Below, piece after piece: positions 37,401 through 43,400 of a stretch of 64,000 nucleotides of DNA (positions within the stretch are counted from its first letter, which is position 1; every line of letters begins with the position of its first letter). The DNA is taken from NCBI RefSeq assembly GCF_053078305.1, contig NZ_CP166879.1. One strand, given 5' to 3'. Position numbers: made by a program.

Positions 37401-40400
37401 CCCAGCGTGGAGTATTTGGTGACGGTAAACTCACTGCCCGGGCTGGCGTGAATGGCTTCAACCATCAGTGTGACGCCTTCTTTTTTCAGCATCTGGCCCG
37501 CTTGCCCACGGGCGCTAAAGCCGCCATCACTGCTCAGGGTGTAGTTTTTGTCATCCAGCACATTAAGCGTAAACACCTGATCCGCCATCTCTTTCGGACG
37601 GTTAAAGGTAGTCACTTTCACCGTCTCGTTCTGGCGTCCCATCAGGCGATCCCAGCCCGCACCGAAAATCGGGAACGTGTTTTTGCTCACCGCAATATCG
37701 AGGTCGAGATCGTCCACCGTTTTACCAAGCACCAGGCGCGAACGAATCAACTGGATCTCGGCGTCCGATGCTGGCGGTTTGTTGGCTAACGCCGATCCGA
37801 TATCCTGCACTAACGAATTGCCGCTGCTTTGCTCGATTTGTACCAGTGCGTCGGCACTATAAATCGGCGTGGCGAAGAAGGTGTAAACCACGGCACAAAG
37901 GGCGAATACAGCGGTGATGCCAATCACCCACCAGCGCGCTTCAATGACGGTGCCGACCAGGCGACCAATATCGATTTCATCACTGCCCGTTACCGGAGCG
38001 GCATGTTGTTTTACTTTTTCTGTCATTCTTATACCTGCTCTGCGTTCAATGCCTGCGCCCACTGGCGGGCAGACCGTTCAAGTAATGTGTACACCGCTGC
38101 AAACGTTTCCCGGCTTTTGCGATACGGATCGGGGATTTCACATTCGTTATCCCAGTGACCAAACAGCATCACTTTGCCGCGCATCTCGGGTGCCATCTCG
38201 CATAAGCGTTCGATATGGCGCTTTTCCATGGTCAAAATCAGGTCATAGTTGCGACACAGGCGGCGGCTGATTTGTCGTGCACAGTGGCCTTCCAGAGACA
38301 GTTGATGTTCTGCGGCGACGCTGATAGCGGTAGGATCAGCGCCCTTACCGACCAGCGCGCCGAGTCCAGCGGACTCCACTTTCAGTTCCGGGTGATAACG
38401 TTGCAGTAAGCGTTCCGCCGTCGGGGAACGGCAAATATTGCCGACACAGACAACTAATATGTTGTTAAACATGACGATTACCAGTTATGAATGTCGCTGG
38501 CTGTATCCGTCATGTAACGGACACCGCTAATAGTTGGCAGCAACTGATTGATCAGACGGTTCCAGCGGGAAACCGGGGCGGTGGTGACATACACCACGTC
38601 ATAAGGTTGCAGGCGGAATTCTGTCGCCATCACCAGCGACGTGGCATCGGACATATCCAGCTGGTAGATATTGGCAATCTTGCCGTTACGCCCGCCCTCG
38701 CCTTTCAGCGGACGAATGACAAAGATGCCGCTGGCGTTGGAGGTGGTCATGTCGATGCCTTCAGCATTGCCCAGGGCTTCAGTCAGGGTCATGCCGCTAA
38801 AGTCCATTTTCAGGGTGCTCTGTTTCTTCACTTCACCCATCACAAATACTTTCAGATCATCATTACGTGGCACGTAGAGAATATCGCCGGGGTAAAGCAG
38901 GCGATTCTGGTTGAGGTCGCCGTTTTGCATCAGCGCCTGCAAAGAAATGCGCTCTTCACGACCATTGTGTGTTAGCACCACGTTGCGCCAGTCAGCGGTG
39001 TCGGTCAGGCCACCTGCGGCGTTGATGGCATCGAGAATGGTCAGTGGTACGTTGGTAATCGCCTGTTGACCGGATTTATTCACCTGGCCGGAGATATAGG
39101 CTTTTTGCGAGCGGAAGGCGGCGATATTAACGTCCACCTGCGGGTCAGCGATGTACGTCGCTAAGCGCCCGGTAATATCACTGCGGATTTCAGCGAGCGT
39201 TTTCCCCACGACGTGAACCTTGCCGATATACGGGTAGAACATGGTGCCGTCAGGCTGTACCCAGTTGCCGGTGTCGCTGGAACTGCGGTACTGACCAGCT
39301 GGCGTGGTGAGTTCCGGGTGATCCCAGACGGTGACATTAAGAACGTCGCCCGGCCCGACGCGATACTGGTAATTCGCGATCTCGCTTTCCAGCGTCATAT
39401 TGGGGCGCGCTACATTCGGGCGTGGGCGTAATTGGTCAATCAGGCGCGGGGTCAGCGGATACACATTCACCATTTTGTCGAGATCGAAATCAGCGTCCTG
39501 CTGTTTGATGACGTCTTTGCCCATCGTCGACATATTGCTGCCCGGAAGTACTGTGCAACCGCTTATCAAGGTTACTGACACCAATAATGGCATCAATTTC
39601 ATTTTGGATTTCATCATTGTTTATTTATCACTTTGGCAGAGTAATTATCCTGTGCACTATTAATAGCAATGTCGCCATGCACATTTACCTTGCAGTTAAT
39701 TGAATAAAAATTTAACTGGCATCAGTCCTAAAAAAATTGATTTCATCCGCAGGCTATTGACAGAATAATTCAGACTGGCTTTCAGGCATCCAGACACGCT
39801 ACCGCCCCTGGCTTTTTAGCTACCAATACACTGATTTAGCTTAATTTTTAAAACCCTCTCAACATACAGTCGTTGATGAGAAAGGGTTATTGCGGAAATT
39901 AACTTCCGAATATAAGGTGACATTATGGTAATTGAATATTGGCTCTCCAATAATGCAGGAGGAAGTGTTACAGCTAACGGAATAGCAGGCAAGGTAACAA
40001 TTCGGCAATTGGCTATTTTTAAGAATTATATTAAGTGTCATTCAATATGGTTTTTAGGAGTTTCTTTAGGTTGACAATATTTAATATTGCGTCTCCACAT
40101 GCGATATTTCTTAAATAATGTTTTATTATTACCACTTTTAATTCAGGGATAATGTGAGGTTATTACCCTCAAATAATATGAGATAAATAGTGCTGCAACA
40201 TTGCATTTTTGCCCCGATTTATCCATGATCGAATTGTGACATTTGTCATACAACGAATAGGTTTTGTACTTACTATGGAATGGATTGCCGATCCGTCTAT
40301 CTGGGCCGGGTTAATCACGCTGATTGTGATCGAACTGGTCCTCGGCATTGATAATCTGGTCTTTATTGCCATCCTCGCCGAAAAACTACCGCCGAAGCAG

Positions 40401-43400
40401 CGCGACCGCGCACGGGTTACCGGGCTGTTGCTGGCGATGTTAATGCGCCTGTTACTGCTGGCGTCAATCTCCTGGCTGGTCACCCTGACTCAACCGCTGT
40501 TCAGCTTCCGCTCGTTTACCTTTAGCGCCCGCGACTTAATCATGCTGTTTGGTGGTTTCTTCTTGTTGTTCAAAGCCACGATGGAGCTGAACGAACGGCT
40601 GGAAGGGAAAGACAGCAATAACCCCACGCAACGCAAAGGTGCGAAGTTCTGGGGGGTGGTGACACAAATTGTGGTACTGGACGCCATCTTCTCACTCGAC
40701 TCGGTGATTACAGCCGTCGGGATGGTCGACCATTTACTGGTCATGATGGCCGCCGTGGTTATCGCTATCAGCCTGATGTTGATGGCCAGCAAGCCGTTAA
40801 CGCAATTTGTTAACAGTCACCCGACCATCGTTATTCTCTGCTTAAGCTTCCTGTTGATGATTGGCTTTAGCCTGGTGGCAGAAGGTTTCGGCTTCGTGTA
40901 ACCAGGTGAATCATTTGATACCAACGAGGGTTTTAGTGAAAGGAGGTGAAATCACCTGTAAGATACTGAAATAAAACAGGTGATACCAATGCGAGCGCGG
41001 AAAGTCTATTTGATACCGATTGTGCAATAATTAGTCGTTTATTCTAAAATCGGCAACACTTTTGATACTACGGATTGACGCTTAAAATGGTTTTAAAAAG
41101 GCTTAAAACGCTTTTCTCCAGATTGTCTTTAAAGGAGTGTACCACAGCACAAAATTTGCACCACTCCCTTACGCACTAGCCTTTTTCTGGGTTACATTTA
41201 AATGATTAACCTTAGCTTCACATTCTTCATAAATCTCTCTTGCTTCAGAATCTGACATATCCTTTAACCTTAAAGCAAGCTCTCGGCGAAAACCGCTAAG
41301 TGCATGTAATTCCTGAATATTATCATCCAATAAGATCGTTAGAAAATCAGCCCCCTTTCTGCCAAGCAATCGGGCTAATTCTAGTTGCTCATCGGTGCTG
41401 AGAGAGGACAGAATTGCCGTAATTGTTTGATTTGCATTATCTAAATTACCTGCATCGACAGTTGAACAACATGGAGTGCTTGGGGTATTTTCATCAGAAC
41501 CAAAAGCTAACCAATTTAAACTCACGTGCTCTTTATTTGATATAAGGCAAGCCATTTTAAAAGAGGGTTCTGTGCCTTTGTGTATGTAGTTATTTAAGGT
41601 TGATACAGGAACCCCCCAATCCTTTGCTGCTGCCCTTACACTCCGCGTCCCGATCAGGCTTAGTAAGCGGGCTTTAAAACTTTCTTTTCCTGGTGCATCA
41701 AAAGAAAAATTTCCATTCTCTTCAATCATTTTTTCTTTTCCTCATAACATATTGAAATAAAAAGAGATAACCAAATAAAACCCACTTCAGCCCACGGAGA
41801 CAAAAGAAAAAGCTATTTTTGCTTTACATGGACTACATTTGGATCAATACTTGTATCAAACTTGATAACAAAATTTAGTTATCAAATTTCGTAACTTTTT
41901 AGGATAGATGAATCATGGCGAGAAATGAAGTTAAGCCTGATTGGCATCCTCAAAGAATCTTGGGGGAAGTCAGAGCCAGAGAAGGAAGTATGAGGGCGCT
42001 GGCCCGTAAAGCTGGCGTAGGTCAGAACAACCTGTACAACGCGGTATACCGTCATGTTCCCAAGTATGAGGGGATTATTGCGGAATGCCTAGGTGTGCCA
42101 CCCGAGGAGATTTGGCCCAGCCGCTACATTCGTAAGGTCGCGTAATTATGTTTGCTTCAGTTAAAGAGCTGGTTGGATTACCGGGAATGCCGGGAACGGA
42201 GCAAGGCGTCCGCTATTCAATCAGGAAGTATGCAACCAGCGAAACCAGCAGACGCCGCCAGGAAGGCAGTAAAGGTTTTGAATACAGCATCGACTGTTTA
42301 CCTGAAGTGACGCAGCAGGCATTGCGTGAGCGCTACGCCCTGCAACTGATGACGCAAAAAGTCGATGAATCACCGGCTCCGGTGGTGACAAAGGCCAGAC
42401 GCTCGCCTGCCGTGGTTGATGCGGTGGAGGCATATCGCGGATCACCACAACTGATGGTTGAACGCCTTAATGCCCTGACTGAAAACCAGCGCCAGGTGGC
42501 TGATGCACGAATCGCGATCGTCAGCGAAGTGATGAAAGTCGCGCAACACCCCGGTTTCAGCTGTGCGAAAGCTATCCGGTTTATCGTTGACAACCTGGCA
42601 CGTTCGCAACTGGACGAGCGCATTGTGGCAATGGTTGAGACGGCGAACGCCAAAAAGGGAAACAGCCGTGCGTTGAGTGAAATAACGCTGAAACGCTGGA
42701 TTGCGGCCTTTAACAAGGCGCAGAACGCCGCTGAACGCCTGCTTTTACTGGCACCGGGTAAGCGCCAGGAAATAAAAGCCGAAGATATTAACTGGCTGCC
42801 CGAATTTCTGGCGCAGTATCGCCAGTCAAACGGCCGACCAATGACCGAGGCTTACGAGGATTTTGTCGCTGAATGGCAGCACCGGCACGCTGATGAGCCT
42901 TATATGCTCGATATCATGCCGTCTTATGACACCATTCGCCGCGCAATGAAGAAACTGCCGGAAGTGGTGAAACAAAAAGGCCGGGTGACCGGCAGTGAAT
43001 ACCGCCAGCTTGAGGGATTCACGCGCCGCGACTGGTCCAGAATGCCGGTGAATTATGTCTGGATTGGTGACGGTCACGGCATGAAGCTGAAATGCGCACA
43101 CCCGGTTCACGGTCGGCCATTTGCACCGGAAGTGACCTTTGTTATCGACGGTGGCACGCGCTTTGTGGTGGGCTGGAGCCTTGACCTGGCTGAAAATGTT
43201 TTCGCCGTAGCCGGTGCCATACAGCACGGCATTCGCCATCACGGCAAACCGTTTCTGTATTACTCGGATAACGGCTCCGGGGAAACCGCCGACATCCTGG
43301 ATAAGGAGGTTGTGGGGATACTGCCGCGACTGGGGATTAATCACCCGACCGGGATTGCCGGTAATCCGCAGGGACGAGGCATTATCGAACGGCTTAACCG

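Follow-up and report, generated by a model that had tools for sequence, protein, structure and literature searches.

In a 64,000-nt stretch of contig NZ_CP166879.1 (assembly GCF_053078305.1), referred to here as the window, the gene yegH is interrupted by a Mu-like transposable prophage, and we consider it very probable that this is a temperate phage of the Sp18 type that integrated into yegH by DDE transposition. The initial annotation had proposed that a prophage of this kind interrupts yegH, and the junction base, the gene order, and the protein domains all agree with it. The window holds the left 23.1 kb of the element (Table 1). Because the window does not reach the right end, the other copy of the target-site duplication, or the yegH 3′ part, the completeness of the prophage and the simplicity of the insertion are extrapolated from its relatives, which measure 38,755, 39,132, 39,337, and 39,968 bp from end to end.

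The left junction in yegH

The yegH reading frame runs from an ATG at 40275 to a TAA at 40899-40901 and encodes 208 amino acids, ending ...AEGFGFV exactly where the initial annotation had placed the cut. Intact YegH has 527 amino acids, with a TerC domain at residues 14-203, two CBS domains at 302-422, and a CorC_HlyC domain at 440-516. The truncated product therefore retains TerC in its entirety but is missing the CBS pair and CorC_HlyC, so that it does not have the full YegH architecture, and yegH is almost certainly inactivated or altered by the insertion.

The proposed comparison with an uninterrupted yegH gave 99.6% identity up to the junction. The match extends through T40897, with phage sequence after it, and the two sequences diverge from 40898 (GTGTAACC in the window, GTCATTCC in the intact gene). 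Megablast breaks at the same point: positions 40100-40897 are yegH in 5,420 genomes, and the sequence from 40896/7 to 41700 is phage in other genomes, at 99.8-99.9% identity. Since the base preceding GTAACCAGG is a T in 12/12 independent insertions with unrelated upstream sequence, we assign T40897 to the phage and end the host sequence at G40896. The prophage, predicted to start at about 40897 with TGTAACC, does begin there, its left end reading TGTAACCAGG... from T40897. As a consequence, the stop codon of the truncated yegH comes from phage DNA, and its last sense codon, GTG (Val), consists partly of phage bases. Chance does not account for the junction: the break coincides to the base with the conserved end of a mobile element.

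No piece of the yegH 3′ part was found within the 64,000-nt window, as had been anticipated, and no Sp18-type element was found inserted in yegH in any of 5,426 complete E. coli genomes. When genome_contigs and metagenome_contigs were scanned for the exact left junction and for the predicted right junction (as a degenerate pattern), there were 0 matches. An exact look-up of the 208-aa truncated YegH in public assemblies did return 24 contigs, each breaking off within codon 209 of the native gene (GTC/GTCA/GTCAT); these are a selection artefact of looking up the exact protein and so say nothing about the insertion.

Table 1. Coordinates of features of the interrupted yegH gene and of the prophage within the window
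Feature	Position	Strand	Basis
yegH host part, 5′ portion (codons 1-207 and base 1 of codon 208)	40275..40896	+	Comparison with intact yegH
TTCG, predicted left copy of 4-bp target-site duplication	40893..40896	.	Inferred from 10/10 related insertions
Sp18-type Mu-like prophage, left 23.1 kb	40897..64000	+	Relatives; expected full length 38.8-40.0 kb
Prophage left end (attL-like), terminal TG at 40897-40898, three repeats	40897..41072	+	Sequence, relatives
Repressor, 186 aa, CI-type helix-turn-helix	41169..41729	-	Pfam Phage_CI_repr 2.3e-5; phrog_3037 transcriptional repressor 1e-46
Candidate operator, repressor-ner intergenic: palindrome and direct repeat (TATCAAACTTGATAAC / TATCAAATTTCGTAAC)	41854..41895	.	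Position
ner-like early regulator, 76 aa	41915..42145	+	45% identity to Mu Ner; phrog_769
Transposase A, 695 aa	42148..44235	+	Pfam HTH_Tnp_Mu_1, Mu-transpos_C; phrog_310 2e-211
MuB-like transposition ATPase, 310 aa	44307..45239	+	48% identity to MuB; phrog_296 8e-110
kil-like early gene	45464..45730	+	phrog_2679 8e-46; weak BLASTP match to Mu kil
gam (shields DNA ends from host nucleases)	46592..47122	+	57% identity to Mu Gam; phrog_491
Mu gp11 and gp12 homologues	47766..48814	+	68% and 55% identity
gemA (gp16)-like	50863..51372	+	43% identity to Mu GemA
Mor/C-family transcription activator, sole one in window	51442..51867	+	39% Mu C, 27% Mu Mor; phrog_532 late transcriptional activator
Lysis genes: endolysin (51939-52439) and Rz-like spanin	51939..52902	+	39% Mu lys, 28% gp23
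gp25/gp26 homologues through terminase, portal, F, G	53323..59663	+	34-72% identity to Mu, same order
Small terminase	53921-54502	+	Mu match in order
Large terminase	54502-56166	+	Mu match in order
Portal	56157-57755	+	Mu match in order
F	57739-59064	+	Mu match in order
G	59190-59663	+	Mu match in order
Head protease/scaffold I, major head protein T, gp35-gp38 homologues	59839..63535	+	Mu identity 52%, 66%, 38-64%
Tail sheath gene L, start; continues past window end	63535..64000	+	44% identity to Mu L residues 4-153

Gene content and relationship to Mu and Sp18

BLASTP against Mu and comparison with PHROGs gave the order repressor (on the minus strand), ner, A, B, kil-like, gam, gemA-like, Mor/C-like, lysis, terminase, portal, and head, with 26 of the 38 ORFs matching Mu proteins in collinear order. 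The Mu-like succession of repressor, ner, transposase, B, gam, mor, lysis, and head genes read in the initial annotation is thus borne out; Mu shares the order c, ner, A, B, kil, gam, gemA, activator, lysis, terminase, portal, head, and tail sheath, together with a MuB-like ATPase, three repeats per end, and a TG left end. It differs in having two Mor/C-family activators, where the prophage has one, and in its c repressor, where the prophage has a CI-type helix-turn-helix protein, a different type of protein for which BLASTP detected no similarity to Mu c. All prophage ORFs are intact; their lengths agree with the JNE141411 annotation, apart from differences due solely to the start codon chosen. 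In relatives, the lysis genes carry the annotations lysozyme and LysC. ARAGORN and Rfam found no RNA genes in the prophage part.

Transposase A has the layout of a Mu-type enzyme: an N-terminal Mu DNA-binding domain (HTH_Tnp_Mu_1, residues 6-141, 1.9e-7), an RNase-H-like core (rve, a weak match), and a Mu-transposase C-terminal domain (Mu-transpos_C, residues 532-592, 3.5e-17). The motifs WIGDGH, SDNGSG, and GIIERL align to or match the DDE motifs of MuA, and the candidate catalytic residues D308, D374, and E414 correspond to MuA D269, D336, and E392. The enzyme is nevertheless only 22% identical to MuA, versus 95% to the A protein of Sp18, and the ATPase encoded directly downstream is 48% identical to MuB over 300 aa and 100% identical to Sp18 B. 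With intact ORFs, DDE motifs, and end repeats, the visible portion of the prophage looks functional. Between the repressor and ner genes, a palindrome (16-nt arms, 88% complementary, gap 0) may serve as an operator, to judge from its position. The description of the proteins as moderately similar to Mu fits most of the genes (39-72% identity, with head genes at 52-72%) but fits neither the transposase nor the repressor.

At the DNA level, the prophage aligns with Sp18 of O157:H7 Sakai at a mean nucleotide identity of 96.5% over 20,988 of its 23,104 bases (91%), and it shares its left terminal sequence and gene order with Sp18. The high identity to Sp18 does not extend to the immunity region, because the module comprising repressor, ner, and the 5′ part of A (41073-42278) is replaced and unaligned, with the repressors 38% and the Ner proteins 43% identical. 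By these comparisons the prophage belongs to the Sp18 type, already described, and is an immunity variant within that lineage; its version of the repressor-ner module is also found in JNE141411, Z1825/Z1826, and OkiPb strains (99.8-99.9%). The initial annotation had suggested a distinct Mu-like lineage: the prophage does stand apart from Mu, but its type is known rather than new, with close relatives, 95-98% identical, in 226 of the 5,426 complete E. coli genomes (about 4%).

The median number of copies of an Sp18-type phage in such genomes is one, and some genomes have 2-4. The insertion sites of the relatives are unrelated to one another (sorM, prpD/prpE, csiR, wzzB, RHS, dcuC, irp1, flgL, the inside of Stx phages, and others), and the presence of the same element at many unrelated, essentially random sites that vary between strains is a signature of transposition. 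Phages of the same kind at scattered sites include the “Mu-like phages” of Shiga-toxin-producing E. coli (STEC), e.g., Phi804-3 of FRIK804 and Mu_JNE122137 and Mu_JNE082796, inside Stx phages. Related copies are mosaic, and some bear insertion sequence (IS) elements. In experiments, Sp18 was packaged but not circularised and was not mitomycin-inducible, like Mu (PMC2669165).

The closest isolated phages are the Yersinia phages vB_YpM_5 and vB_YpM_6, which come from another host genus; they have 81% identity in the transposase, and alignment at the DNA level covers 11%, at 77.5%, leaving most of the genome unalignable. Haemophilus SuMu, Mannheimia 3927AP2, Pseudomonas VW-6B, and the Klebsiella Mu-like phages fall in the same transposase clade (41-57% identity over at least 90% of the length) but are distant overall; the comparison with them covered the transposase.

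The ends of the element and the target-site duplication

The left end carries three copies of TTTGATAC(C/T) in the same orientation, at 40914-40922, 41009-41017, and 41061-41069, i.e., at +19, +114, and +166 from the end (measured to the start of the TTGATAC core) and all within 175 bp. Their spacing is like that of L1-L3 of Mu, in which the three transposase-binding repeats of each end are spaced much as in Sp18-type ends, and we regard them as candidate transposase-binding sites. Allowing at most one mismatch, the window has 33 occurrences of the 9-mer, where 15.5 would be expected. The right ends of relatives have three further repeats, at +19, +41, and +76, and six such end sites have been reported for Sp18 (PMC2628397).

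The right end of the relatives reads ...CTATA, terminating in TA and not CA, in 19/19 cases. In 10/10 paired junctions the element ends ...GCGCTATA and is flanked by a duplication of 4 bp, which directly abuts TGTAACC at the left, whereas the duplication is 5 bp for Mu and 6 bp for the B3 type; GenBank records LC727881 and LC727895 annotate a 4-bp duplication. Intact yegH reads GGC TTCG TCATTCC around the target, and the duplicated bases here are predicted to be TTCG. The right junction would then be ...GCGCTATA, TTCG, and TCATTCCG, the last being yegH from codon 208 onward; written out further, we would expect a right end ...ATCGCCGCGCTATA (longer, ...GGTATCAAAAAAATCGCCGCGCTATA), then TTCG, then the rest of yegH, TCATTCCGAAAGG / TCATTCCGAAAGGCTACCTGTACGC... 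From the lengths of the relatives, these features should lie about 15.7-16.9 kb past the end of the window. The initial annotation rightly placed the right end outside the window, but the extension of about 15 kb that it suggested is slightly short. Its expectation of a right end in CA and a 5-bp repeat does not suit this lineage: because Sp18-type ends are TA with 4 bp, a search on those terms would wrongly “refute” a real insertion.

Two ways of reading a 5-bp duplication were rejected. Counting T40897 as a host base fails because all 12 insertions have that T and 8 of the 10 pairs do not fit a 5-bp repeat; that reading had been prompted by the base following the 4-bp repeat, which by coincidence is a T both in the window and in the csiR insertion. 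Counting the final A of the right end as duplicated fails because the matching base of the left flank is C, T, or G and never A. For two pairs of draft contigs, L025/L036 and L017/L038, there was no duplication; these were set aside as probably joining different copies in the same genome.

According to a 2021 study of transposable prophages, every Mu or B3-like phage then described has conserved TG-CA ends, and duplications of 5/6 bp serve as the diagnostic scar (PMC8705779). In the literature we found no paper stating the 4-bp/TA pattern, and none giving a 4-bp duplication for Sp18; the 4-bp duplication is recorded in GenBank feature annotations only. The evidence for the pattern comes from relatives, as the window holds the left end alone. 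That it is both real and undescribed in the literature is a tentative view, to which we give somewhat less than an even chance.

Probable integration into yegH and its alternatives

By the Mu paradigm, transposase A would bind the TTTGATAC(C/T) repeats at the two ends of the phage and the MuB-like ATPase would bring the target DNA, after which the 3′ ends of the phage would be joined to staggered positions in yegH. Gap repair would then duplicate the bases between the joints, 4 bases in the Sp18 lineage and here predicted to be TTCG, and the CI-type repressor, divergent from ner-A-B, would hold the prophage silent.

The left end could be a true transposition scar and the element still have been rearranged later, through recombination between Mu-like copies, deletion, or inversion, such that it is truncated or not followed by the rest of yegH. 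The 2-4 copies in some genomes could recombine with one another, the relatives are mosaics that in some cases have IS insertions, and the visible sequence ends at 64000; against this, the median is one copy per genome, 10/10 related insertions examined are simple with matching 4-bp duplications, and the visible 23 kb are collinear with relatives, with intact ORFs, so that we think such a history unlikely. Still less credible, indeed very improbable, is that two contigs were mis-joined at the edge of a repeated phage. Short-read assemblies do often break or are joined wrongly at repeated prophages, no other public sequence searched has the exact junction, and two frameshifts of 1 bp in host genes may point to flaws in the sequence. 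A mis-join, however, would not be expected to set host DNA exactly at the first phage nucleotide; contigs stop at a repeat edge because the genome truly has that junction, and the prophage ORFs are intact.

The gene order and the 52-72% identity of head and terminase proteins to Mu would also suit a diverged member of the genus Muvirus itself (Mu, D108, and SfMu). That assignment is already refuted at the level tested. The alignable fraction of the query is only 5% for Mu, at 73.5%, and 3% for D108 and SfMu, which is not the DNA similarity of a Muvirus; the repressor is of another family. Comparison of the transposase with those of Mu, D108, and SfMu, as the initial annotation advised, placed none of the three in the best 40 of 246 matching phage records, whereas those 40 do include Yersinia vB_YpM_5 (81%), phages of Klebsiella (57%), and SuMu (43%).

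Insertion of an Sp18-type phage into yegH is an ordinary event for a well-known phage type, and its importance beyond the strain is small. It inactivates or changes the TerC-family membrane protein YegH, provides a strain-specific marker, and adds yegH as one more landing site for these phages, in keeping with their known role in the diversification of the genomes of cattle-associated and Shiga-toxin-producing E. coli. The one unusual point about the lineage lies in its ends, for which a search should assume TG...TA and a 4-bp duplication instead of TG...CA and 5 bp. If truly undescribed, the 4-bp/TA pattern would amount to a minor novel form of Mu-type transposition, and one that could mislead programs for predicting prophage boundaries.

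Left junction in yegH and surrounding host DNA

The initial annotation had stated that yegH is cut after ...AEGFGFV by a prophage beginning at about 40897, and had proposed a comparison with the uninterrupted gene. We found that residues 1-208 of intact YegH from another E. coli (527 aa) agree with the truncated ORF (MEWIADPS...AEGFGFV) and that the window DNA matches intact yegH up to T40897 and diverges from 40898, which bears out the truncation. Phage bases build the Val208 codon (GTG; native GTC) and the stop codon. Pfam places TerC at YegH residues 14-203, two CBS domains at 302-422 and CorC_HlyC at 440-516, so that truncated YegH retains the membrane domain and has lost the entire cytoplasmic part. 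In strain ET734 (NZ_CP100922.1) an IS1 element interrupts yegH; loss of the intact gene is thus tolerated elsewhere.

Comparing left ends from complete genomes, two Stx-phage records and nine IMG/VR contigs, we found that a T precedes GTAACCAGG in all 12 independent insertions despite differing upstream sequence. We concluded that the element starts TGTAACCAGGTGAATCATTTGATACC at exactly 40897 and that the last host base is G40896. When 40100-41700 was searched by megablast against 5,426 complete E. coli genomes, the alignment broke exactly at the yegH/phage divergence point: the left half was yegH in 5,420 of them, the right half occurred at 99.8-99.9% in a separate genome set as prophage DNA beside csiR, wzzB, RHS and other loci, and none of the 5,426 carried the two halves joined. 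An exact-protein look-up of truncated YegH returned only contigs ending by chance in native yegH, uninformative on the insertion; the ten inspected, from unrelated samples, all end within codon 209, which is probably a selection effect of an exact 208-aa look-up, with a common polymorphism in codon 209 that breaks assembly graphs perhaps contributing.

The nearest complete genomes (98.2-98.4%) include poultry (GPEC, APEC), seawater, bullfrog, cucumber and human isolates, and many other genomes are ~1.2 kb longer than the window within 1-24000. The frameshifts in the colanic-acid genes cpsG and gmd reflect either sequencing errors or true pseudogene formation; separate copies of gmd, fcl, manC and manB lie in the upstream O-antigen cluster.

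Features of the window (approximate positions marked ~)
Feature	Position	Description
gnd, O-antigen cluster, galF	1-15400	O11-family wzx and wzy; then colanic acid operon to wza
wcaK-wzxC spacer	~20691-20967	~96 bp longer than in strain GPEC1035
cpsG	~24996	1-bp deletion vs GPEC1035, frameshifted; ORF 355 aa instead of 456
gmd	~29929	1-bp deletion vs GPEC1035, frameshifted; ORF 302 aa instead of 373
JUMPstart RNA	39795-39833 (-)	Rfam RF01707, 57 bits; upstream of wza, expected for colanic acid operon
Truncated yegH	40275-40901	ATG 40275, TAA 40899-40901; 208 aa
Predicted target duplication	40893-40896	TTCG
Repressor-ner module	41073-42278	Repressor, ner, first ~44 codons of A
Candidate operator	41854-41895	Palindrome and direct repeat (TATCAAACTTGATAAC...GTTATCAAATTTCGTAAC) between repressor and ner genes
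Mor/C-family activator	51442-51867	Single copy between gemA and lysis genes
Counterpart of JNE141411 'tRNA-OTHER'	59065-59189	Nothing found by ARAGORN and Rfam
Tail sheath gene	from 63535	Continues past window end

Gene content and the Sp18 lineage

From 40897 to the window end the ORFs have matches among the Mu proteins and are arranged as in Mu, and PHROGs were concordant for repressor, transposase, transposition ATPase, Kil, Gam and late activator, confirming the Mu-like gene order. The moderate protein similarity to Mu noted from the sequence holds for most genes, at 38-72% identity (ner 45%, B 48%, gam 57%, gp11 68%, gp12 55%, gemA 43%, endolysin 39%, small terminase 57%, large terminase 72%, portal 57%, F 60%, G 55%, I 52%, T 66%, gp35-38 38-64%), but overstates the transposase A, at just 22%, and the repressor, which has a CI-type helix-turn-helix and no BLAST similarity to Mu c. 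The transposase has Mu DNA-binding and Mu-transposase C-terminal domains, and its DDE motifs (WIGD308GH, YSD374NGSG, GIIE414RL) are counterparts of those of MuA. Whereas Mu has a Mor-then-C cascade, this prophage has one Mor/C-family activator, nearer Mu C (39%) than Mor (27%), and the whole-prophage annotation of its closest relative, JNE141411, likewise lists just one, pointing to a transcription cascade simpler than that of Mu. ORF lengths equal those annotated in JNE141411 or differ by start-codon choice only, and no IS element or frameshift was seen in the window part of the prophage. RefSeq annotates a 'tRNA-OTHER' in the JNE141411 prophage between the F and G head genes (L003 23644-23723).

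Membership of the Mu genus proper was refuted. Just 5% of the DNA could be aligned with Mu (73.5% identity) and 3% with D108 and SfMu; when the transposase was compared with these phages, as had been proposed, none of the three appeared among the best 40 of 246 matching phage records, which were headed by Yersinia vB_YpM_5 (81%), Klebsiella phages (57%) and SuMu (43%). Sp18, the Mu-type prophage of E. coli O157:H7 Sakai, aligned over 20,988 of the 23,104 bases with 96.5% identity; its B protein is 100% and its A protein 95% identical to those of the window. The proposed distinct Mu-like lineage is thus distinct from Mu but already known as the Sp18 type. Among 5,426 complete E. coli genomes, 226 share at least 80% of the visible 23.1 kb, for the most part with 95-99% identity; many of the 226 are O157:H7, O111, O121, O91 and bovine isolates. 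Published work reports Sp18 and related prophages to be intact Mu-like phages that are packaged but do not circularise, and whose sites vary between strains, some lying inside Stx phages (PMC2669165, PMC7430833, PMC10132054).

The repressor-ner module is the sole one differing from Sakai Sp18, with identities of 38% for the repressor and 43% for ner. Another version is present in Sakai Sp18 and in the phages that reside within Stx prophages, whereas the window's is common to the JNE141411, Z1825/Z1826 and OkiPb strains at 97-99.9%. The swap probably marks a different immunity type; Mu and D108 differ in a comparable way.

Ends, target duplication and insertion

In Mu the transposase sites have a characteristic L1-L3/R1-R3 layout and spacing, and the Sp18-type end repeats are arranged alike: the first 175 bp of the window prophage contain TTTGATAC(C/T) three times in the same orientation, at +19, +114 and +166, and the right ends of relatives have three further repeats at +19, +41 and +76 from the end. 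Six sites have been reported for Sp18 (PMC2628397), in agreement with this layout. Relatives measure 38,755-39,968 bp end to end, so the right end of the window prophage is expected 15.7-16.9 kb past the window.

The relatives' right end was ...ATCGCCGCGCTATA in 19 of 19, with the following base variable; Sp18-type prophages therefore have TG...TA termini, ending ...GCGCTATA in 19/19. The duplication was exactly 4 bp in all ten relatives with both flanks known (TAAA in Sakai sorM, TAAG at FRIK804 prpD/prpE, ATTC in strain 118, AGCT in Z1826 RHS, GTCA in NIID080884, TTAC in JNE141411 csiR, AGAG in the Stx1 phage of JNE122137, CATC in the Stx2c phage of JNE082796, and AACA and AGAA in IMG draft genomes 2548876695 and 2529293218); moving one or the other boundary by a base, so as to make the repeat 5 bp long, does not work for most of them. 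Mu, in contrast, has a CA right end and a 5-bp duplication. The initial annotation had proposed looking for CA and 5 bp, which even a genuine insertion of this type would lack. The right junction in the window is predicted by analogy to read ...GCGCTATA, then TTCG, then TCATTCCGAAAGG; scans of genome and metagenome collections for it and for the exact left junction gave 0 matches.

The evidence for transposition comprises the junction at a conserved terminus, the end repeats and the transposase/ATPase pair, together with the relatives' scattered sites and short duplications. By extension from Mu biochemistry as summarised in PMC8705779, the transposase would synapse the two phage ends, the B-like ATPase would capture target DNA, the phage 3' ends would attack staggered phosphates in yegH, and gap repair would duplicate the bases between; the repressor presumably keeps the divergent early promoter shut. 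Mis-assembly of the junction is unlikely, because the join sits on the exact terminal nucleotide of the element. A rearrangement of the unseen right side after insertion is somewhat more probable than that, though still unlikely: some genomes hold up to four copies of the element, but all ten relatives examined show a simple insertion.

According to a 2021 paper on transposable prophages (PMC8705779), TG-CA ends and 5/6-bp duplications are the general pattern. We found the TG...TA ends and 4-bp duplication of the Sp18 type stated in no paper, and the depositors of GenBank LC727881 and LC727895 too annotated 4 bp. The pattern of the Sp18 type is the only mildly unusual point, and it is a property of the lineage, known from the relatives and not from the window. 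The prophage itself, real and correctly read, is an ordinary find: a new insertion site of a known, common lineage.
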